Program-made: the position numbers and the translations under genes
Notes under the pieces: generated by a model
What the model was told of the DNA's origin: nothing
Databases searched by the model: none
What the model saw: the letters and a program-made list of their open reading frames with translations, nothing else
Shown: piece after piece, positions 2,879 through 27,348 of the stretch
How positions within the stretch are numbered: the stretch's first letter is position 1
Layout of the letters: every line of letters starts with the position of its first letter
DNA from: a virus
Lineage: Duplodnaviria > Heunggongvirae > Uroviricota > Caudoviricetes
DNA: 64,000 nt
Direction: 5' to 3' (one strand)
Virus record (IMG/VR): IMGVR_UViG_2541047857_000009

Positions 2879-4301
2879 TTTCATGGCTGTACCACAAAAC
2901 CTCGAAGCAGAGCAGAGCGTTATCGGTGGCCTGCTGCTGGATGATGACAACAGCGAGCGAGTCCAGAAGGTTCTGGCGATGCTCAAGCCTGAATCGTTCT
3001 ACAGCCGACCTCACCAGCTGATCTTTGCCGAGATGCGCCAGATGTTCCGCGACAACAAGCCAGTCGATGGTCTGACATTGTTCGACGCGCTCGAAGGCAA
3101 AGGGCTCGCGGAGCAGGTAGGTGGCTTTGCTTACCTGGCGGAGATCGCCAAGAACACTCCCAGCGCTGCAAACATCGTGGCATACGCTGCGTCAGTCCGG
3201 GAAGCCGCAATGGAGCGCTACGGTATCAGCCGCCTGACCGAAGCTACTGAGCTGCTGTATTCCCGCAATGGCATGAGCGCCACGCAGAAGTACGAGGCCA
3301 TTCAGGGTATTTTCACCCAGCTCGCAGACCATTCAAAAACCGGTAGTCGCCGTGGGTTGCGGTCGTTCGGCGAGGTTATGGATGACTGGGTAGCAGATCT
3401 GGAGAAACGCTTTGACCCTTCAGGCGAACAGCGCGGCATGAGCACCGGCATCCCGTCACTCGACCGGCTGCTGGCGCCGAAAGGTCTGGTTAAAGGCTCT
3501 CTGTTCGTGATTGGCGCAAGGCCAAAGATGGGCAAGACAACCCTGTACGGTCAGATGGCGATCAACTGCGCGGTTCGTGAGAAAAAGCCAGCGCTGATGT
3601 TCAGCCTCGAAATGCCGGGCGACCAGATCCTCGAAAAACTGGTTGGTCAGAGGTCTGGAGTTAACCCGAGCATTTTTTACATGCCAGCCACGGATGACGC
3701 CGATGACCAGTACCAGGGCGATTACGACGGCGACTTTAAGAAGGCGATCGCCACCGCCGGGCGATTGAGTGAAATCGACATGCTGTACATCGACGATACT
3801 CCTGGCCTGTCACTGGCGCACATCGTTAGCGAAAGCCGCCGAATCAAGCGCGAGAAGGGCTGCGTAGGAATGATTCTGGTTGACTACCTGACTCTAATGA
3901 CCGCCGAAAAAGCCGACCGTAATGACCTGGCCTACGGGATGATCACCAAAGGTCTGAAGAATCTCGCCAAAGAGCTTGGCTGCGTCGTCGTGCTGCTGAC
4001 CCAGCTCAACCGCGAACTGGAGAAGCGAGTGAATAAACGCCCGTTGCCGAGCGATTCCCGCGACACAGGGCAGATTGAGCAGGACTGCGACTACTGGGTT
4101 GGTATCCACCGGGAAGGTGCTTTCGATGACAGCGTGCCGCCGGGAGAAACCGAGTTAATCCTGAGACTCAACCGCCACGGCAGCACCGGAACGGTTTATT
4201 GCAATCAGATCAACGGGGCAATTTACGACACAGACCAGCAGGCCGCCGCCGCAGAACGCCGCGGGCGCGAGCAGCAGCCGAAAAAGAAAGGGGGCTTCTG
4301 A
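2868..4301 (+). CDS. Replicative DNA helicase, DnaB family
   Basis: DnaB N-terminal domain (QNLEAEQSVIGGLL), Walker A GARPKMGKTT, RecA-like core; GAAGGGG SD. Confidence 0.92.
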   Translation: MTADFMAVPQNLEAEQSVIGGLLLDDDNSERVQKVLAMLKPESFYSRPHQLIFAEMRQMFRDNKPVDGLTLFDALEGKGLAEQVGGFAYLAEIAKNTPSAANIVAYAASVREAAMERYGISRLTEATELLYSRNGMSATQKYEAIQGIFTQLADHSKTGSRRGLRSFGEVMDDWVADLEKRFDPSGEQRGMSTGIPSLDRLLAPKGLVKGSLFVIGARPKMGKTTLYGQMAINCAVREKKPALMFSLEMPGDQILEKLVGQRSGVNPSIFYMPATDDADDQYQGDYDGDFKKAIATAGRLSEIDMLYIDDTPGLSLAHIVSESRRIKREKGCVGMILVDYLTLMTAEKADRNDLAYGMITKGLKNLAKELGCVVVLLTQLNRELEKRVNKRPLPSDSRDTGQIEQDCDYWVGIHREGAFDDSVPPGETELILRLNRHGSTGTVYCNQINGAIYDTDQQAAAAERRGREQQPKKKGGF

Positions 4302-4600
4302 TGAAAGGCAAACAGGCAATTCTTCGTTATCTCGAAACGCACCGGACCTTCACTGCGAAGGATGTGGCCACAGAGTGTGGCATGACCATCAACTGCATCA
4401 CGAAGAACGCTATCGATCTGGAGCGGGCCCGGAAGATTGTGCGCGTGAGCAAGGTCTGGCGAACGGTGACTTATCGCCAGGCGACGCCGGAAGAGCAGGA
4501 CGGCACCGCGCGCAGCTGCACCAACGGAATATTTCAGGGGTGCCGGAACAGTCCTGCGATGAAGCGAGTATTGATGGTTTGGGGGAGGGAAGGGGTATGA
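4301..4600 (+). CDS. Hypothetical protein (start overlaps helicase stop)
   Basis: ATG at 4301 overlapping TGA; 99 aa; larger listed ORF 4199 begins inside helicase. Confidence 0.5.
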   Translation: MKGKQAILRYLETHRTFTAKDVATECGMTINCITKNAIDLERARKIVRVSKVWRTVTYRQATPEEQDGTARSCTNGIFQGCRNSPAMKRVLMVWGREGV

Positions 4601-4794
4601 AAATCGAAGATATCAAAAACGTTGCGGTGTTCTTCAATTTTAACGGTAAAACGGTGGCTTTGCGCATGGATCCTGAGCAGAAGCGAATCGTCGCATTAAT
4701 GGCGCTTAACACGGCTGATGCCCGGGCAGAACTGATTGAGGTGCCGCACATGACTTTACCAGCAGACCCAGCCATGCAGGAGGCCGCCCAATGA
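4598..4794 (+). CDS. Hypothetical small protein
   Basis: 65-aa ORF MKIEDIKN..., start overlaps previous stop. Confidence 0.45.
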
Positions 4795-5396
4795 GCAACA
4801 TCAACAAACAGGAGCTGCGTGAAGCGGCGGAGAGAGCAGAATCCGATAGTTGGGGTTATGATCGCGATGAATTCAATGAGGCTCTAACCCCGTCCACCGT
4901 GCTGGCACTGCTAGATGAGTTGGAAGCCAAAGATTCCATGATAGCAGCACAACAACATGAGATCCGTACGTTACTGAATGCGCTTGAGGGCAGACCATGC
5001 CCTAAATGCAACGACACAGGCATGGCTGATAGTGGCGGTACGCAACCCTGGGGCGAGCCAATAAGCGTTCCATGTGATTGCGCCGCCCCGCCATCGCCGG
5101 TAGCTGTGCCTGAAGGATACAGGTTGCAGCCAATTTCTGAATATGACGCAATGTGCGCCGCCATGCTTCAGGGTGCCGAAAACGCCGAGTCGCGCTGCAC
5201 CATCAAGACCGCGCCAGCACTGGATTCTTTGACAAAAAATGCCGAGTCGCGCTGCGGCAACTCTCCGGTGATTCAGGATGGTTGGGTGCTGGTGCCAGAA
5301 GAACCCACCCATGAAATGCTTGAGGCTGGTGATGAACAATTCGGAACTTACGATGTGTATCGCCGGATGATAGCAGCATCACCGCAGCAGAAGTGA
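4791..5396 (+). CDS. Ead/Ea22-like phage protein
   Basis: N-terminal coiled-coil-like region and Cys-containing C-terminus as in Ea22-like proteins; internal 15-bp repeat GCCGAGTCGCGCTGC twice. Confidence 0.55.
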   Translation: MSNINKQELREAAERAESDSWGYDRDEFNEALTPSTVLALLDELEAKDSMIAAQQHEIRTLLNALEGRPCPKCNDTGMADSGGTQPWGEPISVPCDCAAPPSPVAVPEGYRLQPISEYDAMCAAMLQGAENAESRCTIKTAPALDSLTKNAESRCGNSPVIQDGWVLVPEEPTHEMLEAGDEQFGTYDVYRRMIAASPQQK

Positions 5397-5429
5397 TCTA
5401 TAATCCCCTCAAATAACCGAGGGGGTTTT

Positions 5430-5612
5430 ATGTCTAACGAAGAAATGACTCCAGCAGAAAAATATAAAGCTTCAATGAAAAGACATAAAAAGTTCTGGAG
5501 TAAATCACAAATTGCAAATGCGAAACGGTTTGATGCTGGAGAGGTTGAATCTGTTGATGGTTTTAGATCTCCTTATGAGACCAGAAAGAAGAGAGGGAGG
5601 ACTGCTGACTAA
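5430..5612 (+). CDS. Hypothetical small basic protein
   Basis: 60-aa ORF with GGGGT SD-like sequence upstream. Confidence 0.4.
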
Positions 5613-5866
5613 TGTCTGACTGGAACATTGCAGCAAAGCCGCAGGAAGAACGCGACAAGGTTAATGTTGACCTGGCAGCCTCCGGCGTGGCCTACAAAGA
5701 GCGCCTGAATATGCCGGTTATCGCCGAGCAGGTAGCTCGTGAGCAACCAGAGCATCTACGAGAGTATTTCATGGATCGCGTGCGGCACTATCGCGAGCAG
5801 AGCGTTGCATTGCCTAAGGCATCTGATCCTCGCTACATTGAAATGACTGAGCAAAATGCAAAATAA
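5612..5866 (+). CDS. Hypothetical protein
   Basis: 84-aa ORF, start overlaps previous stop. Confidence 0.45.
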
Positions 5867-5882
5867 ATTTTAGGAGATTCAA

Positions 5883-6143
5883 ATGGAAAATAGCATGAGC
5901 ATCACAACGATTCTTGAAAGAGAAAGGGAGCTTGATGATCTTGTTAAGGTGTGCCTCGATGAGCTTGAGGTGATTGACATCCATGGACAGGTTTACTCAA
6001 TTCCTCTTTCCCACCTAACGAACGCAGAGCAGGTGGTACATTGGGTCTGGAAGATTGCTGAGAGAGGTGATTTCGCCATGGATGTTGTTCGTAAATTTAC
6101 TGAAGTTGCGTCCCATCATGTGGGGTTTGACGCTAAAAAATAA
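5883..6143 (+). CDS. Hypothetical protein (AT-rich)
   Basis: 86-aa ORF with AGGAGA SD; AT-rich relative to neighbours. Confidence 0.45.
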   Translation: MENSMSITTILERERELDDLVKVCLDELEVIDIHGQVYSIPLSHLTNAEQVVHWVWKIAERGDFAMDVVRKFTEVASHHVGFDAKK

Positions 6144-6261
6144 ATCGCCAAGGACCGATTTAATAGCTATACACATGTTTTACATTCCGCTCGCATCTTA
6201 ACCAAATCTTTCTTGGTATAATGATTTTTTACAGGCGAATGACGTGTGAGGTCCGGGATTT

Positions 6262-6459
6262 ATGACTTGTGAAGTATGTAACAAACAACCCCTTGGACGA
6301 AGGGACCCGCCTCTTCCATGCATGGTCTTGCAAGGCGATAAATCCGTTAACTTCAGCCATCACGGACGCGAAGCAAACGAGCGTTATTACAAATGCTCGG
6401 AATGCGGTCATGAGTGGATGAGAGAGACAGGAAATTGCGGCGAAGGCTGGATTCCTTAA
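6262..6459 (+). CDS. Small zinc-ribbon protein
   Basis: CEVC...C and CSECGHEW Cys pairs; TGGTATAAT extended -10 upstream near 6213. Confidence 0.5.
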   Translation: MTCEVCNKQPLGRRDPPLPCMVLQGDKSVNFSHHGREANERYYKCSECGHEWMRETGNCGEGWIP

Positions 6460-6537
6460 CTATATATTGTCGCTATTCGCAAATTGATTTTCTCAAATCA
6501 TCCCGCCATAATTAAGTCGCAGTCGGCCTGAACACCC

Positions 6538-6635
6538 GATTGTGACTTCTGCGCATTTAAGGGGACTTAAATGCGACCACAATCTGAAATCCTCACCTTG
6601 TCACAGATGCAGAAATGCACCTGCGATTTTCTGCA
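6538..6635. promoter_or_regulatory. Two palindromic elements upstream of ninB (terminator or operator candidate)
   Basis: 10-bp inverted repeat CGCATTTAAG/CTTAAATGCG (6552-6575) nested in GATTGTG/CACAATC; second IR TGCAGAAA/TTTCTGCA (6608-6635). Confidence 0.5.
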
Positions 6636-6662
6636 TTCTGCGGTTTCCGTTAAGGAGGCCGT

Positions 6663-7118
6663 ATGACTCTTCCAGTAGACGGCATCAAGCTCCATCGCGG
6701 CAACTTCGCAGCCATCGGTCAGCAGATTCAGCCCTTGCTTGATGCCGGGCAATGCTTTCGCCTTCAGGTTAAGCCGTGGCGCGAGAAGCGCAGCCTGTCG
6801 CAGAACGCTCTCAGCCACATGTGGTACACGGAAATCAGCGAATGCCTCATCACCCGCGGCAAGACCTTCGCTACGCCTGAATGGGTCAAAGACGCGATGA
6901 AGCACACCTATCTCGGCTACGAAAGCAAGGACAGGGTAGACGTCGTGTCCGGAGAGGTAACCACGGTCCAATCCCTCCGCCATACGTCAGAGCTGGAAAC
7001 CGGCGAGATGTACATCTTCCTGTGCAAAGTCGAAGCCTGGGCGATGAATATTGGATGCCACCTGACCATTCCGCAGAGCTGCGAGTACCAGCAGCTGCGC
7101 GATAAGCAGGAGGCCTGA
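6663..7118 (+). CDS. ninB: NinB (Orf) recombination protein
   Basis: SLSQNALSHMWYTEISE motif typical of NinB; TAAGGAGG SD; position in nin region. Confidence 0.85.
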   Translation: MTLPVDGIKLHRGNFAAIGQQIQPLLDAGQCFRLQVKPWREKRSLSQNALSHMWYTEISECLITRGKTFATPEWVKDAMKHTYLGYESKDRVDVVSGEVTTVQSLRHTSELETGEMYIFLCKVEAWAMNIGCHLTIPQSCEYQQLRDKQEA

Positions 7119-7288
7119 TGTCTACTCCACTTTCCCGCGTCATCACCAACGAAATCTTCCGCGTTCCGGCGCGCCGCAAGCGTAAGCCAGCGGTTAAGCC
7201 GTCCGACATCCCGACTTTCAAGGACTACACCGCCCGCCTGGTCGATCAGAAATGGCTGCGTCTCGCGGCGAGGAGAGCGCATGGCTAA
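7118..7288 (+). CDS. ninE: NinE-like protein (56 aa)
   Basis: Own translation MSTPLSRVITNEIFRVPARRKRKP...[11 protein letters not shown] resembles NinE; not in ORF track because under 60 aa. Confidence 0.6.
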   Translation: MSTPLSRVITNEIFRVPARRKRKPAVKPSDIPTFKDYTARLVDQKWLRLAARRAHG

Positions 7289-7571
7289 TTTATGCAAAGC
7301 CGCACGCGGCCGCGAATGTCAGGTGCGGATCCCCGGCGTCTGTAATGGAAATCCTGAAACAACTGTACTGGCGCATATTCGGCTTGCTGGTCTGTGTGGT
7401 ACGGGAATCAAGCCGCCTGACCTGATCGCCACAATCGCATGCAGCAGCTGCCACGACGAGATTGATCGACGCACCCGTCTGGTCGATGCGGAATATGCAA
7501 AGGAGTGCGCGCTGGAGGGCATGGCCCGCACGCAGGTTATCTGGCTGAAAGAGGGGCTCGTGAAATCATGA
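7281..7571 (+). CDS. DUF1364 / YbcO-like putative nuclease
   Basis: Cys-rich motif [11 protein letters not shown]...CSSCHDEID; position between ninE and rusA as in DLP12-type nin regions. Confidence 0.7.
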
Positions 7572-7930
7572 ACCAATACCGTATCTCATTGCCATGGCCG
7601 CCGAGCAACAACCGCTACTACCGGCATAACCGCGGGCGCACGCATATCAGCGTAGAAGGGCAGGCGTACCGCGACAGTGTCGCCAGAATCATCAAAGACT
7701 CAATGCTGGATATCGGCCTGTCCACGCCGGTGAAAATTCGCATCGAGTGCCACATGCCGGATCGCCGCCGCCGTGACCTGGACAACCTGCAAAAGGCAGC
7801 GTTCGACGCGCTGACTAAATCAGGGTTCTGGCTCGATGACCAGCAGGTTGATTACTACAGCGTGAAGAGAATGCCTGTCGTCAAAGGCGGAAAGCTTGAA
7901 CTGACAATCACTGAACTGGAGGCAGCATGA
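7568..7930 (+). CDS. rusA: RusA Holliday junction resolvase
   Basis: [11 protein letters not shown] and [14 protein letters not shown] motifs; near-identical to my recollection of E. coli RusA. Confidence 0.9.
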
Positions 7931-8063
7931 AGCCAGAAGCGCTCGAGATAATCCGCACTCGTTGGCAGCGACTCCGTATTTACCGCCGCCCTGGATCCGT
8001 GCTGGTTGACTACCGAATCCTTCGAAACTTCGTCCGCATTTATCATCAAGCAGGAGCCACACA

Positions 8064-8753
8064 ATGAACAGTCAGCAACTGGAATACGTACGTCAGCAGC
8101 TCATTGTGGCGACCGCCGATCTGAGCGGGGCGACGAAAGGCCAACTGGTAGCTTTCGCCGAGAACGCGCAATTCACCGCTACAGCGCGTAGCCGGGGCCG
8201 GAAGAAAGTTTATGATGTGCAGAAAAAGCGCATGGTTAACCCTGATAGTCCGCCGATGAGCGGCAGCCAGTCCCGCGCCAAGGGATCGTCAATCGCTCTG
8301 GTGTGCCCGGTAGAGTTCATGACAGCATCATGGCGCCGCGCTGTCTTGTCTCTTGACGACCATCAGAAAGCGTGGCTGCTGTGGAACTACAGTGAGAACA
8401 TCCGCTTCGAGTACCAGGTGGCGATCACCCATTGGGCGTGGTCAGAATTCCGGGAGCAACTTGGCGCGAAGAAGGTGGCTGGCAAGACGATGGAGCGCCT
8501 GAAGAAGCTTATATGGCTGGCGGCGCAGGACGTTAAAGCGGAGCTGGCGGGGCGCGAGACGTACGAATATCAGGCGCTGGCGGAACTAGCGGGTGTTGCA
8601 AAATCAACCTGGACAGAGACGTATCTGCCTCACTGGCTGGCAATGCGTAACAGCTTTAAGCGACTCGATAGCGGTGCGCTTATCTCAGTAACGCGATCAC
8701 GTTCACAACAAAAGGCGACAAATTTGGATGTAAGTCTTGCAAAACCGAACTGA
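8064..8753 (+). CDS. Late-gene antiterminator Q-like protein
   Basis: Position after rusA and immediately before late terminator, tRNA and lysis genes; 229 aa. Confidence 0.6.
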   Translation: MNSQQLEYVRQQLIVATADLSGATKGQLVAFAENAQFTATARSRGRKKVYDVQKKRMVNPDSPPMSGSQSRAKGSSIALVCPVEFMTASWRRAVLSLDDHQKAWLLWNYSENIRFEYQVAITHWAWSEFREQLGAKKVAGKTMERLKKLIWLAAQDVKAELAGRETYEYQALAELAGVAKSTWTETYLPHWLAMRNSFKRLDSGALISVTRSRSQQKATNLDVSLAKPN

Positions 8754-8819
8754 AACGCATATATTTCATGTAAATATGATATCGTCGCCATAGCTTTGAT
8801 TGTCGACTGAATATAAAAA

Positions 8820-8845
8820 CCTCGCCACCGTGCGGGGTTTTGTCG
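8820..8845 (+). terminator. tR'-like intrinsic terminator downstream of Q
   Basis: CCTCGC-CACCGT-GCGGGG hairpin followed by TTTTGTCGTTT. Confidence 0.6.
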
Positions 8846-8859
8846 TTTCTGGAGCCAAC

Positions 8860-9186
8860 ATGTCCGAGAAAATCACAGAGCAATTGGTCTTTCGCCCTGC
8901 CAGTGAAAAACTGACAAAGGATCTGGATGGTGAGTGGGTGATTCTGCTCAATCCATGCGATGGCTGGCATATTGCCCATGTGGTGGCGCTGGAAGAGGAT
9001 GGCGAGGTCTACCATGTCGGAGCATATCAATTTGCAGGCGGCGAGTTCGAGCCGCACGAATTTTATGTTGCCTGGGCTTTGCTTCCAGACTCAATAAAAC
9101 TGTCTGATCGCTTTGAAGATCAGAGGATGAGTCAAGAAATTAGAGACGCTCGCTGGCGTGAATGGACAGCCAGCATCAATAAGTGA
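8860..9186 (+). CDS. Hypothetical protein, first late-region ORF
   Basis: ATG 8860 with GGAG SD; listed ORF 8800 start lies inside the terminator. Confidence 0.45.
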   Translation: MSEKITEQLVFRPASEKLTKDLDGEWVILLNPCDGWHIAHVVALEEDGEVYHVGAYQFAGGEFEPHEFYVAWALLPDSIKLSDRFEDQRMSQEIRDARWREWTASINK

Positions 9187-9201
9187 TTTCAAACCAAATT
9201 C

Positions 9202-9276
9202 GCCGGTCTAGTTCAGTGGCAGAACGGCAGCCTTGTAAGCTGCGCGTCAGAGGTTCGATTCCTTTGCCCGGCACCA
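9202..9276 (+). tRNA. tRNA, anticodon TGT (Thr-like), phage-encoded
   Basis: Hand-folded cloverleaf: D-stem GTTC/GAAC, anticodon arm GCAGC-CTTGTAA-GCTGC, T-loop TTCGATT, 3' ACCA; one acceptor mismatch. Confidence 0.55.
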
Positions 9277-9333
9277 GAACCCACTGCCTGGGACCCTTCG
9301 GCCATAGAGCCGGCATTGCCTTACCCTCACATT

Positions 9334-9357
9334 GCCAGCCTGTCGCTGGCTTTTTTA
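9334..9357 (+). terminator. Intrinsic terminator after tRNA
   Basis: GCCAGC-CTGTC-GCTGGC hairpin followed by TTTTTT. Confidence 0.6.
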
Positions 9358-9440
9358 TTTTCAGGCTCCGGGAACCATCATCGACACGCCTACTTGTTAA
9401 ATCGTCCCGAGGGCCTGAACCAACTACACACGGAATAAAT

Positions 9441-9842
9441 ATGTCTGAGACCTTCACTATCGTAGGCGTTGGTCTTACATCGTCATCAGTCGGTGTAACC
9501 TTTGCCACGCTGTTTCCGGAGGCGACTCCAGCAGTGATGCTCGGATCACTCGCCGGAACTGCGCTATACGTTCTGACCTCAGATCCCCATCAACTCTGGA
9601 AGCAGGCTATCTTTGCGCTGATATCGTTTATCAGTGGCGTGTTCTTCTCCGTACCCATGGCGAAAATCATGGCCGGAATCATCAACACGCCGTTAAGCCT
9701 GATGAAGCCACCAGCCAGCATTGAGGTATCGCCAGCTGTCGGTGCAATTGTCACTGCTTCCATTTCCGTGGCAGTCCTGCTGCGTATTCTCCGCAAATCC
9801 AAAAGCGGGAAGATGCCGGGGCTGGGGGAGGAAGATAAATGA
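9441..9842 (+). CDS. Holin-like membrane protein
   Basis: Three hydrophobic segments and charged C-terminus; first gene of lysis cassette. Confidence 0.6.
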   Translation: MSETFTIVGVGLTSSSVGVTFATLFPEATPAVMLGSLAGTALYVLTSDPHQLWKQAIFALISFISGVFFSVPMAKIMAGIINTPLSLMKPPASIEVSPAVGAIVTASISVAVLLRILRKSKSGKMPGLGEEDK

Positions 9843-10114
9843 CATGGCAGCTTCTTCTGATGGATGCAAACGCCATAGTTTGCCTGTTAATCATGGTCAG
9901 GCTGATGTTTTTCCGGAAAGAGGGAAAGCGTCATCGCCTGAGTGTCGCGGTGCTGGCCTACCTGGTCATACTTGCCGCCGGATTCAACGCCTTCAACATT
10001 CTGCTCGGCCACTACGTTCAGGTTAACCTTGGCGACCTGCTGCTGAACTCCGTCATATGCATGGCGGTGTGGCTGGCGCGTGGGAACCTGGCGAAGGTCG
10101 TTATAACGGAGTAG
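9839..10114 (+). CDS. Holin/antiholin-like small membrane protein
   Basis: 91 aa with two or three TM segments, directly upstream of endolysin. Confidence 0.6.
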   Translation: MTWQLLLMDANAIVCLLIMVRLMFFRKEGKRHRLSVAVLAYLVILAAGFNAFNILLGHYVQVNLGDLLLNSVICMAVWLARGNLAKVVITE

Positions 10115-10117
10115 TCC

Positions 10118-10558
10118 ATGCAAACCAGCGAAAAGGGCATTGCCCTAATCAAAGAATTCGAAGGCTGTAGACTCACTGCTTACCAGGACAGCGTGGGCGT
10201 ATGGACGATCGGCTATGGCTGGACTCAACCTGTGGATGGAAAACCAATCCGCGCCGGGATGACTATCAAGCAGGAAACAGCAGAACGTCTGCTGAAGACC
10301 GGGCTGGTCAGCTATGAAAACGACGTGTCCCGCCTGGTTAAAGTCGGCTTGACTCAGGGGCAATTCGACGCCCTGGTGTCGTTCACGTATAACCTCGGCG
10401 CTCGGTCATTGTCGACATCGACACTCCTGCGAAAACTCAATGCCGGTGATTACGCTGGTGCTGCTGATGAGTTCCCGCGCTGGAACAAAGCAGGTGGCAA
10501 AGTCCTGAACGGGCTAACCCGTCGGCGTGAGGCGGAGCGCGCTCTGTTTCTGTCGTGA
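10118..10558 (+). CDS. Endolysin, GH24 lysozyme (T4 lysozyme-like)
   Basis: KEFEGCRLTAYQDSVGVWTIGYG catalytic region typical of phage lysozyme. Confidence 0.9.
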   Translation: MQTSEKGIALIKEFEGCRLTAYQDSVGVWTIGYGWTQPVDGKPIRAGMTIKQETAERLLKTGLVSYENDVSRLVKVGLTQGQFDALVSFTYNLGARSLSTSTLLRKLNAGDYAGAADEFPRWNKAGGKVLNGLTRRREAERALFLS

Positions 10559-10941
10559 TTAGCGCACTGGTTAAGCGTTACTGGCTGCAACTGATTGTGG
10601 TGGCGGTAATCGGCGTGCTGGCGTTCTTCGTGAACCACTACCGCGACAACGCCATTACCTACAAAGACCAGCGCGACAAGGCGACGGTCAGGGCAGATAC
10701 ATCGGAGGCGATCACCAGCAACGTGATCACCACGATGAACCTCATCCGTGACATTTCACAGGCTACCCAGAATGCAAAGAACGAACTGGCCCATAAAGGC
10801 GAAACGCGCATTGTCTACATCAGGCAGGCGCTTGAAGGCGATCCGTGCGCTAACCAGCTTGTTCCTTCTGCCGCTGCTGACAGCCTGCGGGAATACGCAG
10901 ACAGTTTACGTTCCGGCCCCGGTGGTTCCGATAAGCGCTGA
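10555..10941 (+). CDS. Rz-like i-spanin
   Basis: N-terminal TM segment, coiled-coil periplasmic region, position after endolysin. Confidence 0.8.
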   Translation: MISALVKRYWLQLIVVAVIGVLAFFVNHYRDNAITYKDQRDKATVRADTSEAITSNVITTMNLIRDISQATQNAKNELAHKGETRIVYIRQALEGDPCANQLVPSAAADSLREYADSLRSGPGGSDKR

Positions 10942-11092
10942 CCTGACAGCTGACACGCCGATCCCCGGAATTACGGTTCCGTTCACGTGGCAGGCAAGTC
11001 TGGAGTTAAACGCTCAGCTCTACACGGCGCTGGGGCAGTGCAATCTGGATAAGGCTGCGATCAGGAAAATTGAAGAAGCGAGAAAAAAATAA
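10772..11092 (+). CDS. Rz1-like o-spanin lipoprotein (overlaps Rz in +1 frame and extends past it)
   Basis: Lipobox LLTAC then Pro-rich PAPVVPISADLTADTPIPGITVP; start codon uncertain. Confidence 0.6.
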   Translation: MQRTNWPIKAKRALSTSGRRLKAIRALTSLFLLPLLTACGNTQTVYVPAPVVPISADLTADTPIPGITVPFTWQASLELNAQLYTALGQCNLDKAAIRKIEEARKK

Positions 11093-11185
11093 ATTGAATT
11101 CGAGAAATGAAAGTAGTAAAAGTCAGTCATGCTGTGAGCAGACCAGCTGAAGAGAAATCACCAAGTATCAAAAACAAAATTCTGA

Positions 11186-11211
11186 GCCTCGGCAATCGCC
11201 GGGGCTTTTTT
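11186..11211 (+). terminator. Intrinsic terminator after lysis cassette
   Basis: GCCTCGG-CAATCG-CCGGGGC hairpin followed by TTTTTT. Confidence 0.65.
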
Positions 11212-11364
11212 GTATCCGCATTTCACCGCGCACCGCAGCGCATTCAACCCACGTCGAACCATACCCTTTGAAATGAGCCTTTGAGGAAGTCAGTTAGTGC
11301 TGGCGAGCCTCGACGGGCTGATTTCCTATGCGGCAAAGGTTCATCTCAAAGAAAGGTACACGCT

Positions 11365-11910
11365 ATGACATATCCAACTGTGATCGTGAATGGTGTCTCT
11401 GTCCGAGTGGACGAGAAGGGGCGCTATAGCCTGAATGATCTTCATGCCGCCGCTGTCCTGAAAGGTGAGGCTACTGAGTCACAAAAGCCGGGCAAGTTTA
11501 TTCGTAGTGCATCAGTAAAGCGTTTCGTTCAGGCGCTGGCAGGCAAAGGACAAAAATGTCCTTTGGAAGATAACCAGGCACTTAGAGTAATTCGCGGTGG
11601 TGACGAGCCCGGCGTATGGGCTGCAGAGCTACTCGCTATTAGATATGCCGCCTGGATTAAGCCGGAGTTTGAAATCCGCGTTTATGAAACCTTCCGCGAG
11701 GCTGTGCTCAACGGTCTTAGCAATATGAACCGACTCAACCGACTTGACCTGCTGATCGCCAATGAGACCAAAGAGGTCAGCGCATGTGCCCGGGCAATGA
11801 ATAAGTGGGGCGTCGGTGGTCGCAAGAAGCTTCTCAATTGCGCTCGTGAGCGGATCGTCAGCCAGATGGACCCTGACATGGTCACGCTTATGGAAGCGAA
11901 AGCAGGGTAG
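11365..11910 (+). CDS. KilA-N domain protein
   Basis: N-terminal KilA-N-like region (VSVRVDEKGRYSLNDLHAA); AAAGAAAGG SD; flanked by terminator. Confidence 0.7.
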   Translation: MTYPTVIVNGVSVRVDEKGRYSLNDLHAAAVLKGEATESQKPGKFIRSASVKRFVQALAGKGQKCPLEDNQALRVIRGGDEPGVWAAELLAIRYAAWIKPEFEIRVYETFREAVLNGLSNMNRLNRLDLLIANETKEVSACARAMNKWGVGGRKKLLNCARERIVSQMDPDMVTLMEAKAG

Positions 11911-12139
11911 CCAACGCAGAATTGCGTCGGCAAATAGCGGCATTACAGAAGCTCTTCACTGAGGGGCTTCGATAATGACAAGCAGAGGTAAATTATGATT
12001 GGCACCCTAACCTATAAAATGACACTTCGCCCATACATGAAGCCCTTGCTGTTTGTCGCGGCAATGACTAACTGGCACTGGTTAACCGATATCTGCTTCA
12101 AGAAAGAGATTGTCGCAGAAGGCGCGAAGGTGGAGCTAA

Positions 12140-12358
12140 ATGGCTGACATCTACCAAATCACGCTAACCACCCAAACAGGCGAAACCTTCACGGGCAAGA
12201 TGTCACGACGTCAGCCTGAGCTGGTTAACGGCTTTGTGCCGCTGGCGACCGAAACGGGGCAGTGGCTGTACTTCGCTCCTGCTGATGTAAAGCGTGTGGA
12301 GTTCACGCCAGTACCTGAAGAGCAGACCGAACAGCCAGAAGAACAAACAACGGAGTAA
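12140..12358 (+). CDS. Hypothetical protein with acidic C-terminal repeat
   Basis: 72-aa ORF ending PEEQTEQPEEQTTE. Confidence 0.45.
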   Translation: MADIYQITLTTQTGETFTGKMSRRQPELVNGFVPLATETGQWLYFAPADVKRVEFTPVPEEQTEQPEEQTTE

Positions 12359-12361
12359 CTC

Positions 12362-12994
12362 ATGGCAAGCGACGAAGAGAAAAGGCCACTGCCGAGTTCA
12401 GCATTCGTCGAAGAGTTCGCGCCATACACAAGACTGATTCCAGCTGATGGCGTGTGGCAGTGGGTACAAGCGAACATCATTGCCGAATCAGGCCACCTGC
12501 ATAACCCCGACCATATTCATCTGGCAGATGCTGATATCGGCTTCCTTTGGGCTGCTAATGCTTTCTCAAAGAAAGGGCGCACTGTTCTCGGGCAGGCCGA
12601 AGAAGTTATGTTTCGCGCTGGCGGGTGGCAAAAAGCCCGCATGGAGCAGCAGATGTATGAATGGTTCGGGCATAAGCCGGATTACATCATTACCCTTGCT
12701 GGCGACTTCTGCCTTAAGTGCTCTGATCTGGAATTCTGCGCCCTGATTGAACATGAGCTTTACCACATCGCCCAAGAGGTTGATGAGTTCAGCGCTCCCA
12801 AGTTCTACAGAGACAGTGGTTTGCCAAAACTTTGCATGCGTGGTCATGACGTCGAAGAGTTTATCGGCGTGGTTCGCAGATACGGCGCAAGCTCTGATGT
12901 GCAGGAATTGGTAGACGCTGCAAACAACCCCGCCGAAGTGGCGAAAATTAACATAGCCAGAGCATGCGGAACGTGCATGCTGAAGCTGGCTTAA
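12362..12994 (+). CDS. HExxH-motif protein, putative zinc metallopeptidase-like accessory protein
   Basis: LIEHELYHIAQE motif plus scattered Cys; no confident family assignment. Confidence 0.5.
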   Translation: MASDEEKRPLPSSAFVEEFAPYTRLIPADGVWQWVQANIIAESGHLHNPDHIHLADADIGFLWAANAFSKKGRTVLGQAEEVMFRAGGWQKARMEQQMYEWFGHKPDYIITLAGDFCLKCSDLEFCALIEHELYHIAQEVDEFSAPKFYRDSGLPKLCMRGHDVEEFIGVVRRYGASSDVQELVDAANNPAEVAKINIARACGTCMLKLA

Positions 12995-13024
12995 ATTTGT
13001 AATGCTTTGGAAGGATGGTGATTC

Positions 13025-13480
13025 ATGGCTGCACTAAAACCAGAGGTGAAAGCCGCCATCGTTCAAATGCTTGCGTGCTATGACACCCTGTCGATTGTGG
13101 TCGACTCCGTCCAAAAAGATTACGGGATAAAAGTCACCCCGCAGCAAGTCGAATCGCACGACCCGACTAAGGCCAGCGGGAAAGGGCTGGCGCAGAAATG
13201 GGTAGAACTATTCAACGAAACCCGCAAGCGCTTCCAGACAGAAATCAGCGACATCCCGATCGCTAACAAAGCCTATCGTCTGCGCGCGCTCGACCGGATG
13301 ATGACCAACGCCGAGAAGATGCGAAACATGGCTCTTGCCGCATCGCTAATGGAGCAGGCGGCGAAAGAGGTTGGCGATGCGTACAGCAACAAACAGAAGG
13401 TCGAGCACACCAGTCCGGACGGAAGCATGACGCCGAAGCCGACCATTATCCAGTTACTACCCGTTGAGCCTAAAGCATGA
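13025..13480 (+). CDS. Terminase small subunit
   Basis: 151 aa, immediately upstream of and overlapping large terminase. Confidence 0.7.
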   Translation: MAALKPEVKAAIVQMLACYDTLSIVVDSVQKDYGIKVTPQQVESHDPTKASGKGLAQKWVELFNETRKRFQTEISDIPIANKAYRLRALDRMMTNAEKMRNMALAASLMEQAAKEVGDAYSNKQKVEHTSPDGSMTPKPTIIQLLPVEPKA

Positions 13481-15017: not shown

Positions 15018-15067
15018 GTCGCTCAGGCGGCCTTTTTTATTGCCATAAATCCACCACCGGACAATCC

Positions 15068-16417
15068 ATGAATGACAAATTAACTCTCGCCGTCAACCAT
15101 GCGTTGAACGATGCGCGGATGGCTCGCGCCCGTATGGGGCTGATGGCGCCTACAATGGGGCTGGACAACAAGCGCCACTCTGCATGGTGCGAGTATGGAT
15201 TCCCTGAGCAGGTAACCTACGAAAACCTTTATGCCCTGTACCGACGCGGTGGTATTGCCCACGGCGCAGTAGAGAAACTGGTGGGCAAGTGCTGGCAGAC
15301 TAACCCGGAAATCATCGAGGGTGATCAGGCAGACAAAAAGCGCAAAGAAACCGCCTGGGAGAAAAAGGCCAAACAGGTATTCACCAACCGATTCTGGCGC
15401 TCATTCTCTGAGGCCGATCGCCGTCGTCTGGTGGGCCGTTATGCTGGCATCCTTCTGCACGTCCGCGATGAAAAAGACTGGAACCTTCCGGTAACCAAAG
15501 GGCGAGGTCTTCAGAAAATATCGGTGGCGTGGGCAGGATCGCTTACGGTGAGCGAGTGGGACACTGGCCTGAACTCGAAGACGTACGGCCAGCCTCAGAT
15601 GTGGCAGTACGCCGAACGCTTGCCGAATGGTTCAAGTCGCCGCGTCAATATCCACCCCGATCGCGTTTTCATCCTTGGTGATTACTCAGACGATGCTATT
15701 GGCTTCCTTGAGCCAGCTTATAACGCCTTTGTAAGCCTGGAGAAGGTAGAGGGTGGATCCGGCGAGTCATTCCTGAAGAACGCCGCGCGCCAGCTTAATG
15801 TCAACTTTGAGAAGGAAATCGACTTCAACAATCTTGCGTCACTTTATGGCGTGAGCATTGACGAGTTGCAGGATAAGTTTAACGAAGTTGCCGGGGAAAT
15901 GAACCGTGGCAACGATGTTTTGATGACAACCCAAGGGGCCACGGTCACACCGCTGGTGACTGCTGTAGCTGATCCTTCAGCGACCTATAACGTCAACCTG
16001 CAAACGGCTGCCGCCGGTGTTGATATCCCGACGCGCATTCTGGTTGGTAATCAGCAGGCCGAGCGCTCCAGCACCGAAGACCAGAAATACTTTAATGCTC
16101 GTTGTCAGTCGCGACGCGTAGACCTCTCTTTCGAAATAGAGGACTTCTGCGACAAGCTTATCGATCTACAAATCGTAGACTCAGTCAGTCAGAAGGCTGT
16201 TATCTGGGATGACCTTAACGAACAGACCGGTACTGAGAAGCTCACTAACGCCAAGACCATGGGCGAAATTAACCAGACCATGCAGGGCAGCGGCGAAGAG
16301 CCAGCGTTCAGCCGTGAAGAGATTCGTACAGCTGCGGGTTATGACAATGACGACGAAGAGCCGTTAGGAGAAGAGGATGGCGACGAACAAGACGAAGCCA
16401 CCAATTCTACCGCGTAA
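15068..16417 (+). CDS. Portal protein
   Basis: About 450 aa following terminase, acidic C-terminal tail; start taken at ATG 15068. Confidence 0.75.
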   Translation: MNDKLTLAVNHALNDARMARARMGLMAPTMGLDNKRHSAWCEYGFPEQVTYENLYALYRRGGIAHGAVEKLVGKCWQTNPEIIEGDQADKKRKETAWEKKAKQVFTNRFWRSFSEADRRRLVGRYAGILLHVRDEKDWNLPVTKGRGLQKISVAWAGSLTVSEWDTGLNSKTYGQPQMWQYAERLPNGSSRRVNIHPDRVFILGDYSDDAIGFLEPAYNAFVSLEKVEGGSGESFLKNAARQLNVNFEKEIDFNNLASLYGVSIDELQDKFNEVAGEMNRGNDVLMTTQGATVTPLVTAVADPSATYNVNLQTAAAGVDIPTRILVGNQQAERSSTEDQKYFNARCQSRRVDLSFEIEDFCDKLIDLQIVDSVSQKAVIWDDLNEQTGTEKLTNAKTMGEINQTMQGSGEEPAFSREEIRTAAGYDNDDEEPLGEEDGDEQDEATNSTA

Positions 16418-23408: not shown

Positions 23409-24077
23409 ATGACCGCTTTAACCGATATTGGCGAACTCTCTATCAGCGACAGCCGCGCAGGCGGTAAAGACTACCTGCTCAGGCCCTCATTCGAGGCTAT
23501 GACGAGGATCGGCGCTCCAGAGGAGATTGTGCAGGCGTATGCCACCATCCACGGCAAAGACGTCGCACAGCTGGTTGAGGTGTGCGCTGGCATGCTGGGG
23601 CGCTTTCCTGAATGGCTATCACCTTCATTCAACCGTGCAGCCGAGAAGCTGTTATCGACGTGCATGCTTGTGCTACAGGCGTGCTGTGAGGACGACCTGA
23701 CGCCAATGATCGGCGAATGGAAAGGATGGCGGCATTGTGTCGTCTACCGCCCGGGCCAGATGCCTAAGAACGACATTATCGTACTGGCGCAGCACCTCAT
23801 GCAGCACGGCATCGTCGGAAAGGCAAAGGTTCGCCAGTTGCAGCGCCACGAGACTGGCGAGCGCACTACGGAGTTCAAAGCCTTCGACTACATCAGCGCA
23901 GCACGTAGTCACTTTGGAATGAACCGCGCCGAAGCCTCTCAGTTAACGATGACCGAATTTCAGATGCTGCTGGCGGCGAAATACCCCGATCAGAAAGGTT
24001 TCACTCGCGATGAGTATGACAGCATCGCCGACGAATACCTGGCTAAACAGGCTGCACGTAGAAAGAAAGCCCAATAA
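23409..24077 (+). CDS. Tail assembly chaperone (putative)
   Basis: 222 aa between major tail and tape measure genes. Confidence 0.5.
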   Translation: MTALTDIGELSISDSRAGGKDYLLRPSFEAMTRIGAPEEIVQAYATIHGKDVAQLVEVCAGMLGRFPEWLSPSFNRAAEKLLSTCMLVLQACCEDDLTPMIGEWKGWRHCVVYRPGQMPKNDIIVLAQHLMQHGIVGKAKVRQLQRHETGERTTEFKAFDYISAARSHFGMNRAEASQLTMTEFQMLLAAKYPDQKGFTRDEYDSIADEYLAKQAARRKKAQ

Positions 24078-24090
24078 ATTGGGCTCTATT

Positions 24091-24303
24091 TTAGAAAACC
24101 AACGTCAAATGCTCTCTACCAATCCGGGCTAAATCACTGACGTTCATTGGTACTCGGCCCCTAACGTCGATTTTAATGTGACCACCGGCATTAGCTACGG
24201 TTCTTATTAAGTCAGAAATATTCATTGGAATTGCACAATCGGCAGTAATTTCTATATGAACTCCAGTTCTGGCTATATCACTAATATTCATTGGTAACGG
24301 CAT
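24091..24303 (-). CDS. Hypothetical small repeat protein on opposite strand inside tail module
   Basis: 70 aa with three PMN(I/V)SD(I/L)(A/I)R repeats; AT-rich; convergent with chaperone gene. Confidence 0.4.
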   Translation of the reverse strand: MPLPMNISDIARTGVHIEITADCAIPMNISDLIRTVANAGGHIKIDVRGRVPMNVSDLARIGREHLTLVF

Positions 24304-24417
24304 AAATCCTCCATTGTTTTAAAAACAGCAATCATTTCAGCACGTTCATTACTTTTCTATTGTGATGAGCCTTAAGATTCAGCGAAATACCATCGTCAGT
24401 ACTATTTGGAGAATGAC

Positions 24418-27348
24418 ATGGCTGGTGAGAAGAACGCCGGTAGCATCGTTTATGAAATCAGCGCTGACGTTGAGCCGCTGCTGCAGGGCGGGAAGCAGGC
24501 CATTGATGCTCTGGATAAATTGGATGCGGCAGCTCAGCAGTCCGGCAAGGGAATGGATAACCTCGATCAAAGCACGTCTCAAACCGGATCCGCGTTTACT
24601 GAACTGGCTGGTTATGCCAACTCGATGGATAACCAACTGCGCAAGCTTAACACCAATGTGAGCGGGATCGCCCGCGCAATGGAAGAGGCCCGCAGCGGGA
24701 CCGGTGGCGCCAACAGTGAGTTCAATCGCGCTGAATCCATCATCGAGGCGCTGGGTAACCAACTCGCTGTGCTGGACGAAGCACAGGAGAATGGCGCTCG
24801 CAGTGCTGCCGTTCTGGCTGCCCAGTTGCGCGCCGGGTCAAAAGCGACCGATGAAGAGAAGCAGAAGATCGGCGAATTGACCGGCCGACTGTATGACATG
24901 AAAACAGGCGTGGAAACCGGAGCGAAAGGAACTGGAGCCTGGAAAAACAGCATGCAACAGGCTGGGTACCAGGTTCAGGACTTTATCATTCAGGTTCAGG
25001 GCGGCCAGTCCGCGCTGGTAGCGTTTGCACAGCAGGGCTCTCAACTTGCCGGTGCATTCGGGCCGGGTGGTGCGGTAATTGGTTCTGTTATCGCACTGAG
25101 TTCTGTCCTGGCCGGTGTGCTCATCACTTCTCTGAATGGCGGCAAGAACGCCATGGATGCGCTGAAAGACGCAGCCGAGGCGATGGACAAGGTCATTACC
25201 ATTTCCCAAAATGGCGTGGCCGCTCTGTCTGATAAATACGCATTGCTCGCGAAAACGAATACCGAAGTAGCAACGCTGATGCGTAACCAGGCACTGCTGG
25301 AATACAACGAGGCTATCAACAAGATACCGAAGGCGATTAGCGATGCTTCGAGCTCGTTACTTTCCTTCGGCGATAAGGCACTTTCTGCATTTTCCGGTGG
25401 TTATGCGTCAGTCGATGGCTTTAACGATCGTCTGGCTACTCTTGAAATCACCACGGATAACTATTCCGAGGCGATGAAGCAGGCATACGGTGCCGGGCAG
25501 GCATTCCAGGCGACCGCAAACAGCATTGGCAACACCGTCGGAGCCGTTGCCGACAAGTTCGGGATATCAGAGCAGAAAGCCTTCGAGTTCAGCAAGCAAC
25601 TTTCCGATATTGCCAAAAACCCAACACCGGAAGCCCTGCAGCGACTTGCTACTGAACTGCAGAACACTCAGAGCTCAACCGAGAAAGGGCAGACTGCGCT
25701 CACGGCATTTGTTGGGAAACTGGTTGAGTTATCACGTGAAGCCGTCATTGCTAAAGGTAATGTTGCTGCTCTGAAGCAGGAAACGGATAACCTTACCGCC
25801 GGGCAGAAGAACCTTATCAAGCAGTCAGAGCGTAACCTTGCGCTGTCAAAACTGCAGGGTGAGGCTCGCGCCCGACTTCAGGCGCAATATGCCGCTGAAG
25901 ATGCGGGGTTTGCAAAAGATGATCCGCACGCCAAACAAATGGAAAATGACGCTGCCGCTACGTACAAAAATACGCAGGCGCAGAAGACACTTCAGTCCGA
26001 GCAGAAGAAAGGTGCTTCCCAGGCTGATTCTATTGCTCAGAAACTGGCGAACCTGAAACAGCAATCAGAGCTCGCTGCCGACTCAACAAGCAAGCTGAGC
26101 CGGGAACAAGCGATCCTGAATGCTCAGCAGTCACTTGGTAAAGGCGCAACGAAGGAGCAGATCGCGCTGGCTGGGCAGTACGCCGCAACAAAATGGGACA
26201 CTGCTAACGCCATTAAAGCGCAAGCGGCAGCTGAGAAGCTTCTCCCTGAGGCGCGTGAGAATGCCAGTTACAAGCAGGATGTAGAGGATCTGAACACCGC
26301 TCTGGCTGCGAAGAAAATCAGTCAGGAGCAGTTCAATCAGACTTCCGAGCGACTGGAGGCAACTCACCAGGCAAACCTCGCCAAAATCCGCGCCCAGCAG
26401 GCTGTGACGCCACAGCAGGATGCAGTCGGTGGAGTTGACCCTGTTCAGCAACTTGCTAACGAGAACGCTCGCAAGCTAGCGCTCATTCAGGCATTCGAAC
26501 AGCAGGGGCTTATCACTCACCAGAATGCGCTCATGCTGCGCGCTACAGCTGACAAGGAGTATGAGCAGGCTCGCATCGCTGCCCAATGGGAGATCTTCCG
26601 CAATCAGAGCGCAGGTAATGAAGCACTGGCGGCGTCCTTCGATGCACTGGCCGGTAATGCGTCCAACGCCTTAACCGGCATCATTACCGGGAGCATGTCA
26701 GCGTCTGATGCCCTGCGCTCGATCGGGAATACCGTACTGAACAGCCTCATCAACACCTTCGTTCAGATGGGCGTTGAGTGGGTGAAGTCAGCCATCATGG
26801 GGCAGACGGCCACCACTGCTGCAGTTGCAGCATCGACCACTGCTCAGGCGGCAGGCATTGCCACTACCACGGCGACGTCTACCGCGGCGGCGGCGGCTAC
26901 GACAGCGGCCTGGACTCCGGCAGCCATTATGTCATCCATCGCCTCATTCGGTGGTGCGGTGGCGATCGGCATCGGAGCTATGGCTGGCATCCTGGCGCTG
27001 TCTGGCAAGCGAAAGAACGGCGGGCCCGTTTCGGCTGGCGGAATGTACCAGGTCGGCGAAGGCGGGATGCCTGAGATTTACCAGGCCAGCACCGGAAAGC
27101 AGTACATGATACCGGGCGACAACGGTCGAGTGATCAGCAATAAGGACATGGCTTCAGGAGGTGGTGGCGGGGTGGTAATCAACATCCAGAACTACACGTC
27201 ATCCTCGGTCGATGCGCAAGCTGGCACGGATGCCAATGGGGGCGTGACCGTCGATGTCATCGTCGCTGACCTGAATAATGGCGGGCCGATTAGCAGCGGT
27301 ATAACCAGCAACTTCAATGTCAAACGCAAGCCAAGGGGGCAGGGCTGA
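24418..27348 (+). CDS. Tail tape measure protein
   Basis: About 975 aa, Ala/Gln-rich coiled coil, hydrophobic Ala-rich segment near C-terminus; GGAGA SD. Confidence 0.9.
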   Translation: MAGEKNAGSIVYEISADVEPLLQGGKQAIDALDKLDAAAQQSGKGMDNLDQSTSQTGSAFTELAGYANSMDNQLRKLNTNVSGIARAMEEARSGTGGANSEFNRAESIIEALGNQLAVLDEAQENGARSAAVLAAQLRAGSKATDEEKQKIGELTGRLYDMKTGVETGAKGTGAWKNSMQQAGYQVQDFIIQVQGGQSALVAFAQQGSQLAGAFGPGGAVIGSVIALSSVLAGVLITSLNGGKNAMDALKDAAEAMDKVITISQNGVAALSDKYALLAKTNTEVATLMRNQALLEYNEAINKIPKAISDASSSLLSFGDKALSAFSGGYASVDGFNDRLATLEITTDNYSEAMKQAYGAGQAFQATANSIGNTVGAVADKFGISEQKAFEFSKQLSDIAKNPTPEALQRLATELQNTQSSTEKGQTALTAFVGKLVELSREAVIAKGNVAALKQETDNLTAGQKNLIKQSERNLALSKLQGEARARLQAQYAAEDAGFAKDDPHAKQMENDAAATYKNTQAQKTLQSEQKKGASQADSIAQKLANLKQQSELAADSTSKLSREQAILNAQQSLGKGATKEQIALAGQYAATKWDTANAIKAQAAAEKLLPEARENASYKQDVEDLNTALAAKKISQEQFNQTSERLEATHQANLAKIRAQQAVTPQQDAVGGVDPVQQLANENARKLALIQAFEQQGLITHQNALMLRATADKEYEQARIAAQWEIFRNQSAGNEALAASFDALAGNASNALTGIITGSMSASDALRSIGNTVLNSLINTFVQMGVEWVKSAIMGQTATTAAVAASTTAQAAGIATTTATSTAAAAATTAAWTPAAIMSSIASFGGAVAIGIGAMAGILALSGKRKNGGPVSAGGMYQVGEGGMPEIYQASTGKQYMIPGDNGRVISNKDMASGGGGGVVINIQNYTSSSVDAQAGTDANGGVTVDVIVADLNNGGPISSGITSNFNVKRKPRGQG

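Follow-up and report, generated by a model that had tools for sequence, protein, structure and literature searches.

The 330-bp insert described here is a self-contained, horizontally variable moron cassette that occupies a slot flanked by the DUF6246 and tape measure genes of a prophage, where it lies antisense to the late operon. The host prophage is a lambdoid-regulated siphovirus, contained within a 64,000-nucleotide stretch of caudoviricete DNA (IMG/VR record IMGVR_UViG_2541047857_000009) that is referred to below as the window. The minus-strand ORF of the insert is a genuine gene for a 70-residue protein built of three repeats. It is a well-supported accessory gene of the ordinary moron kind rather than an element of a new kind, and its protein family is uncharacterised. 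On balance, the evidence favours a self-contained moron that is expressed in lysogeny and probably plays a role in phage-host conflict.

The insert, its flanks and its expression signals

The features of the locus are as follows.

24078-24407: low-GC insert of 330 bp, delimited by alignment to the empty sites of E. quasiroggenkampii, E. hormaechei and phage CobraSix and by the GC profile
23409-24077, plus strand: left-flanking DUF6246 gene (Pfam PF19759, E 3e-72; PHROG 791, unknown function)
24418-27348, plus strand: right-flanking tail tape measure protein gene, named from the annotation of E. coli 20A24; its homologues match PF20155 (TMP_3)
24091-24303, minus strand: protein-coding gene of 70 aa, an ORF with an ATG start and its stop codon at 24091-24093, belonging to the three-repeat family PHROG 23044
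24307-24312, minus strand: Shine-Dalgarno sequence GGAGGA, 3 nt 5' of the ATG, read from the sequence and kept in the related loci L005 and L006
24334-24342, minus strand: weak candidate extended -10 element TGCTGAAAT, identified by eye only and conserved in L005
24068-24085: palindromic, GC-rich hairpin AGCCCAAT-AAAT/ATTT-ATTGGGCT, found by a terminator scan of the plus strand, as an inverted repeat and by RNA folding

The insert stands in place of a dinucleotide, CC, that is present in the empty site, and alignment to the empty sites shows that the stop codon of the DUF6246 gene and the Shine-Dalgarno sequence (GGAG at 24408-24411) and ATG of the tape measure gene are intact despite it. A sequence-only reading of this DNA had described an AT-rich gap of 230 bp within an otherwise co-directional tail operon. 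The AT-rich composition is confirmed: the flanks have a GC content of 0.53-0.60 (about 0.57), and in the gap it drops to 0.35-0.41. The actual intergenic gap measures 340 bp (24078-24417). The co-directionality of the operon also holds, since the rest of the late region lies on the plus strand, and in the 20A24 prophage every gene from terminase to tail fibre is on that strand except this ORF. The upstream gene, which had been called a tail chaperone, does sit in the chaperone position, between the tail tube and tape measure genes; its sequence, however, is that of DUF6246, and its placement as a tail assembly chaperone is inferred from that position only.

The small gene has a ribosome-binding site and a terminator-like hairpin of its own, and probably a weak promoter. 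A consensus promoter scan of positions 23900-24600 found no consensus sigma-70 promoter on either strand, and the extended -10-like element matches at 4/6 positions. The hairpin begins 5 nt past the stop codon of the small gene, carries T-runs on both strands and is terminator-like; on the minus strand its RNA folds with -14.5 kcal/mol (z -2.2) and UUUCUUUCU then follows. It is conserved in L005, and the only Rfam hit, a sub-threshold one, falls on it. Its left arm reaches into the end of the DUF6246 gene, covering the last codons and the stop, and late transcripts of the plus strand also meet the hairpin. Other phage-borne genes of the family each have a strong Shine-Dalgarno sequence and a downstream hairpin.

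The prophage carrying the insert

The insert is 100% identical in E. coli 20A24 (NZ_CP147044.1), the sole carrier among 5,426 complete E. coli genomes. The window and the 20A24 prophage share 99.6% identity over 13418-40157 and over 3093-7276, and the segment between (7277-13417, with nin, Q, lysis, KilA-N and metallopeptidase genes) is mosaic relative to 20A24. The window cannot be the 20A24 genome, being mosaic outside the stretches of 99.6% identity. In the remaining part (40158-64000) a second prophage lies at 44-50 kb, with YdaT, DUF977 and LexA-family genes; E. coli ATCC 11775 is among the strains that share it at 100% identity.

8064-8753, plus strand: Q antiterminator gene (Pfam PF06323, E 1e-83)

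Because the window has its own Q antiterminator, the late operon interrupted by the insert is Q-driven. Holin and lysozyme genes lie 3' of the Q gene and are followed, in the part shared with 20A24, by the packaging, head and tail genes on the plus strand. Two further parts of this prophage deserve mention. A 449-aa plus-strand gene after the large terminase (window about 15067-16416) bears in 20A24 the RefSeq name 'anti-CBASS protein Acb1 family protein', which looks like an annotation artefact on what is, by position, the portal gene. The right end of the prophage (window about 33835-38600), as annotated in 20A24, carries cargo: after the GDSL-esterase tail protein comes a minus-strand acyltransferase gene, possibly an O-antigen-modifying moron, and next come an S24 peptidase and a Y-family polymerase gene (umuDC-like) and then an SOS-response-associated peptidase gene.

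Empty sites and a cargo hotspot

The spacing between the DUF6246 and tape measure genes is 12-15 bp in Enterobacter phage CobraSix, Hafnia phage Pocitis76 and nine prophages, in eight of which the DUF6246 protein is 91-95% identical. Among 48 DUF6246 loci drawn from GTDB species representatives, the gap was measurable in 33; it is 12 bp in nine of these and reaches 4.2 kb in others, a range that marks the site as a cargo hotspot. The GC content of filled gaps is 0.39-0.50, with only three at 0.47 or above, and that of the neighbouring DUF6246 gene is 0.48-0.56. Comparison with related prophages had been suggested by the sequence-only reading as a way to learn whether the insert is variable, and it is: the gap varies in length as described, and the nearest relatives are empty. 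The view of the ORF as an inserted moron, put forward at the same time, is upheld by these empty sites, the foreign composition, the gene's own Shine-Dalgarno sequence and terminator hairpin, and the purifying selection and family conservation described below.

None of the 48 related loci carries a member of the ORF's family; blastn of the insert against phages gave no match, nor did a tblastn search of 50,697 phage records with the ORF and P0017 as queries. The remark that a reverse-strand gene is unusual at this place holds in so far as the gene is rare. It fails in so far as such a gene recurs at the site in four diverged lineages, and an opposite-strand immunity gene in a Q-controlled operon is already documented, namely taiEcA of phi80 (PMC11364771).

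Other cargo is found at the same site. Enterobacter phage ENT1 (L002 2194-2490, minus strand), BHUENT3 and BHUENT6 carry, in an AT-rich insert at this junction, a 98-aa minus-strand ORF (MTKMQTKLIAELKK...) that is unrelated to the 70-aa ORF and has no Pfam, PHROG or PADLOC match; this insert also replaces the last codons of the DUF6246 gene. Many related prophages, including L044, L058, L060, L063, L065, L066 and L069, have, in a gap of low GC content and about 430-560 bp directly 5' of the tape measure gene, a plus-strand ORF of 100-137 aa, which may be a second recurrent cargo of the hotspot or a true tail-module gene missing from the phage of the window.

A conserved protein of three repeats

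The ORF translates as MPLPMNISDIARTGVHIEITADCAIPMNISDLIRTVANAGGHIKIDVRGRVPMNVSDLARIGREHLTLVF, in which three copies of one short unit can be recognised.

24268-24294, minus strand: repeat 1, PMNISDIAR, residues 4-12, the helix start of the first helix-strand unit
24202-24228, minus strand: repeat 2, PMNISDLIR, residues 26-34
24124-24150, minus strand: repeat 3, PMNVSDLAR, residues 52-60

The three PMN(I/V)SD(I/L)xR units of a 70-aa minus-strand ORF, and a repeated DNA motif within it, had already been reported from the sequence alone, and both are present. A repeat search recovers DNA copies at 24119-24152, 24190-24228 and 24256-24296, 72-79% identical over 34-39 nt, which match the protein units. 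The 64-kb window has only two exact copies of the 9-mer ATTCATTGG (24220 and 24286), both within the ORF, and a one-mismatch copy stands at 24142; since three same-strand copies fall within 153 bp, the arrangement is not due to chance. This 9-mer is the reverse complement of CCA-ATG-AAT, the codons for Pro-Met-Asn. In the annotation of the 20A24 prophage the ORF is WP_001514209.1, a 'hypothetical protein'.

An exhaustive HMMER scan of 1.84 billion representatives returned 12 proteins, which align essentially end to end, and a profile search returned 35 clusters. Hit lengths span 53-75 aa, 35 of the 37 homologues having 66-75 aa, and neither search found a relative longer than 75 aa. Members come from Serratia, Burkholderia, Vibrio, Herbaspirillum, Methylophilus and metagenomes, the same three-repeat layout is seen in 39 of 39 aligned sequences, and the family is conserved as protein at 24-40% identity in unrelated genomic contexts. 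PHROG 23044, a family of unknown function, matches residues 1-70 of the 70 (E 6.2e-52). Neither the ORF nor the family has a match in Pfam, NCBIfam or PADLOC, with no PADLOC-DB 2.0 defence family hit by the ORF at E up to 1; a PDB sequence-profile search with the family gave nothing significant, and a search of the literature for the accession numbers, PHROG 23044 and DUF6246 found nothing relevant. Inspection of the sequence shows neither a signal peptide nor a membrane segment, and the product is predicted to be soluble.

A word-indexed search found one close homologue, P0001, at 90% identity over its full length. Between the two genes there are nine synonymous and seven non-synonymous changes (dN/dS 0.21, binomial p 0.004), and three further pairs of family genes give dN/dS of 0.11, 0.02 and 0.14; these ratios indicate that the ORF is under purifying selection. 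The P0001 locus is a decayed prophage remnant, represented by L005 (metagenome contig k141_1036842) and L006, from which about 8 kb of head and tail genes have been deleted and in which the 70-aa gene and its flanks are intact. Within L005 5145-5876 and 1934-4966 the first residues of the tape measure protein (1 to about 49) are fused in frame to a C-terminal fragment of the type I restriction protein HsdR (T1RH-like_C, E 2e-85), and after this fusion stand two UvrD-like helicase genes.

Predicted structure and evolution of the repeats

An AlphaFold2 model built from only two sequences was unusable (pLDDT 51). The model built from an alignment of 39 sequences (pLDDT 75.5) folds as (helix-strand)x3. 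In this alignment the consensus repeat reads (L)PxTLExLARxG..H(I/V)T(I/V), with a His/Asn ladder preceding each strand. The helix segments show 57% identity among the repeats within one protein against 38% for the same repeat across proteins, and the strand segments show the opposite pattern, with 32% within one protein and 47% across proteins.

The likeness of the repeats does not come from gene conversion or another homogenisation of the DNA, which is ruled out by codon differences. Among 196 pairs of identical residues between repeats in 11 family genes, the codon is shared by 60 (31%). The Burkholderia sequence PQTLETL, for instance, is encoded as CCG CAA ACT CTC GAA ACG CTG in one repeat and as CCA CAA ACA TTA GAG ACG TTG in another, and in the gene of the window Ser has the codon AGT in one repeat and TCT in a second. 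With identical residues written in different codons, the likeness must be kept at the level of the protein, and selection would appear to hold the three helix surfaces alike within each protein while the lineages diverge. This pattern would suit either three equivalent contact surfaces or the ladder packing of a solenoid, between which the data cannot separate; together with the model it makes the protein a candidate binding module. Repeats matched within a protein by selection and without gene conversion are an unusual evolutionary signature, and one that offers a handle for mutagenesis and for a target search.

Genomic contexts of the family

The family gene lies reversed in the gap between DUF6246 and tape measure genes in four diverged lineages, with 33-40% protein identity, and the flanking DUF6246 proteins of the lineages that share the gap are 52-54% identical.

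Lineage 1: the E. coli type, in the window, 20A24 and L005
Lineage 2: Serratia liquefaciens (L007-L010), within a 4-kb island
Lineage 3: Serratia sp. (L016-L018)
Lineage 4: a metagenomic prophage (L082), again directly convergent with the DUF6246 gene, with a GC content of 0.40 against 0.58

The low-GC island in the S. liquefaciens gap (L008 4242-8084) holds three genes for probable secreted proteins or lipoproteins (148, 106 and 111 aa), one for a small membrane protein, one for a 160-aa protein just past the family gene and one for a 301-aa protein in which caspase-like 'TGHG ... GQCYAG' motifs can be seen by eye; none of the island proteins has a Pfam or PADLOC match.

Elsewhere the gene is found in varied company. 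On a P22-like phage contig it is one of two small reverse-strand genes. In Burkholderia it marks the edge of an island with a resolvase gene, next to bacA and directly 3' of a variable gene. The upstream gene at this chromosomal site is swapped between species, being DUF6338 in B. multivorans (L011/L012 5209-5874) and, in B. ubonensis (L025-L027 3954-5897), the gene of a GmrSD/HEC-06-like type IV restriction enzyme, and the small gene and the nearby resolvase gene are kept in both arrangements; the site has the look of a defence slot whose content varies and whose edge gene is conserved. The Herbaspirillum member adjoins a TIR gene and lies beside a prophage; ThsB-TIR and SLATT genes stand another two to three genes away. 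In Vibrio the gene lies between those of an integrase and a HEPN protein, and in one MAG a Schlafen/AlbA_2 gene is two genes away. The Methylophilus member belongs to a two-gene insert between gltX and miaB, with a single small neighbour and otherwise housekeeping genes. No constant partner gene was found across the contexts examined; a toxin-antitoxin or other two-gene system with a fixed partner is ruled out, as the neighbours differ in every context. The link with defence is one of guilt by association over about 13 contexts.

Comparison with known accessory genes and folds

The term moron is applied to lambdoid phages as in PMC10884400 (citing Juhala et al. 2000), an example being gp15 of HK97, which acts in superinfection exclusion. 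The present cassette resembles lambdoid morons in being an extra gene between genes that are adjacent in relatives, in its foreign, AT-rich composition, in having its own terminator and in its location in a late structural operon. It differs in that the gene runs against the operon and in that its product is a three-repeat protein, predicted to be soluble; HK97 gp15 is an inner-membrane protein.

A comparable layout is that of phi80 taiEcA/atiEcA (Tai standing for tail-assembly-inhibition immunity), an E. coli lambdoid prophage locus in which the late operon, antiterminated by Q, is likewise interrupted by an accessory gene on the opposite strand. The taiEcA gene, which shows 'noncontiguous operon' behaviour, is expressed in the lysogen, and its level is reduced when Q is supplied (PMC11364771). 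It provides an experimentally tested model for lysogenic expression with damping by late transcription. The two proteins differ about threefold in size, FLAG-tagged TaiEcA running at 26.1 kDa on a blot (PMC11364771) against about 7.7 kDa estimated for the 70-residue protein. The usual place of Tai genes is 5' of the packaging module (PMC11364771), and the present gene lies in the tail module; unlike taiEcA/atiEcA, no adjacent counter-defence gene is evident at the present locus.

Tab of Pseudomonas phage JBD26, a protein of 83 residues whose activity is linked to the tape measure protein and which has no sequence similarity to proteins or domains of known function, is likewise a small orphan and shows that proteins of such a size and location can be anti-phage effectors (PMC10884400). 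The tab gene differs in being flanked by the terminase genes, its product is not reported to have a three-repeat architecture, and the link of the present gene to the tape measure is one of position only. At the level of the fold, the predicted (helix-strand)x3 layout of the family, with its ladder, may resemble the alpha/beta solenoids of leucine-rich repeat (LRR) proteins and differs in having only three repeats and no caps. No LRR model of Pfam matched the ORF or 14 family members at E up to 1, and Rossmann and TIM fragments score as well as or better than LRR-like solenoids.

Mode of action and competing explanations

A gene that runs against a Q-dependent late operon and has signals of its own is for that reason most likely transcribed in lysogeny. 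Transcription would start in the silent prophage from the gene's own weak promoter. After induction, the Q-modified polymerase would pass the hairpin, which may otherwise stop plus-strand transcription before the tape measure gene, and this late read-through would be antisense across the small gene and would tend to damp its expression. The product is probably a small binding module with a part in conflicts of phage with phage or of phage with host, for example in superinfection immunity, defence or counter-defence. It would bind through three near-identical helix surfaces that selection keeps alike within a protein and that differ between lineages. A role in one or other of these conflicts, exerted through binding, is probable given the genomic contexts and the sequence pattern.

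A different function, in the lytic tail assembly of the phage itself, is suggested by the location, where the protein might serve the tape measure as an accessory chaperone or as a self-immunity factor of an 'anti-Tab' or Ati-like kind. Occupation of the same gap in four lineages whose proteins have diverged to 33-40% identity, with flanking DUF6246 proteins 52-54% identical, is compatible with long co-residence, and tape measure proteins are trimeric or hexameric (PMC10884400), which would suit a protein with three equivalent surfaces. We nevertheless regard a tail function as unlikely, since a gene on the opposite strand is not co-transcribed with the tail genes, its absence from all 48 related prophage loci and the empty sites of CobraSix and Pocitis76 show that assembly can dispense with it, and the members in Burkholderia, Vibrio, Herbaspirillum, Methylophilus and the P22-like podovirus have no tail genes nearby. 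The convergence of the gene with DUF6246, whose last codons its terminator overlaps, raises the thought that antisense RNA or convergent transcription tunes the DUF6246 or tape measure gene, with the ORF incidental; in phi80, opposing transcription does tie an immunity gene's expression to the late operon (PMC11364771). This is improbable, given that four independent gene pairs show strong purifying selection on the protein and that it is conserved as protein down to 24-40% identity across unrelated contexts; moreover, the transcript would miss the ribosome-binding site of the tape measure gene (24408-24420), and no Rfam family is matched.

The sequence-only reading had also allowed for a regulatory element in which the repeats bind a protein, and (A/G)TTCATTGG, present three times on one strand at spacings of 66 and 78 bp, with the exact 9-mer absent from the rest of the 64 kb, does have the look of an iteron or operator. 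This idea did not survive comparison. The motif is CCA-ATG-AAT in reverse and so encodes the protein repeat; in P0001, at 90% identity, the 9-mer is lost and the three copies become ATTCACTGG, ATTCAATGG and GTTCGTAGG, all Met codons having changed (to Val, Leu and Thr) while the frame stays open and the residues NxSD(L/I)xR persist; and across 11 family genes the repeats are alike in amino acids with only 31% codon identity. Protein-binding sites are therefore a highly improbable function of the repeats. Even less credence can be given to a spurious ORF or to a fragment of a decayed larger gene, a suspicion invited by a short, AT-rich, orphan-looking frame that neither Pfam nor NCBIfam recognises and ruled out by the comparative data, namely the uniform length of 35 of the 37 homologues, the want of any longer relative among 1.84 billion representatives, the purifying selection and the strong Shine-Dalgarno sequence. 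A moron expressed in lysogeny, with a probable part in phage-host conflict, is the account we prefer.

A bolder form of the binding hypothesis, which we think rather doubtful, is that the family represents a new, minimal class of (helix-strand)x3 solenoid employed in phage conflict, whose three surfaces, matched by selection, grip a target that is periodic or trimeric. Such a target might be the tape measure of competing siphophages or their tail-assembly complex. If so, the protein would be the third, unrelated immunity protein that blocks tail assembly, after Tab and Tai, encoded beside its own phage's tape measure gene and turned down by antisense late transcription.

Significance

Prophage morons are a proven source of anti-phage and counter-defence functions, as HK97 gp15, Tab and Tai attest. 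To these the present locus adds a defined cargo hotspot between the DUF6246 and tape measure genes of a widespread group of Enterobacterales siphoviruses, as well as an orphan family of about 70 residues that returns repeatedly to that hotspot and to defence islands.
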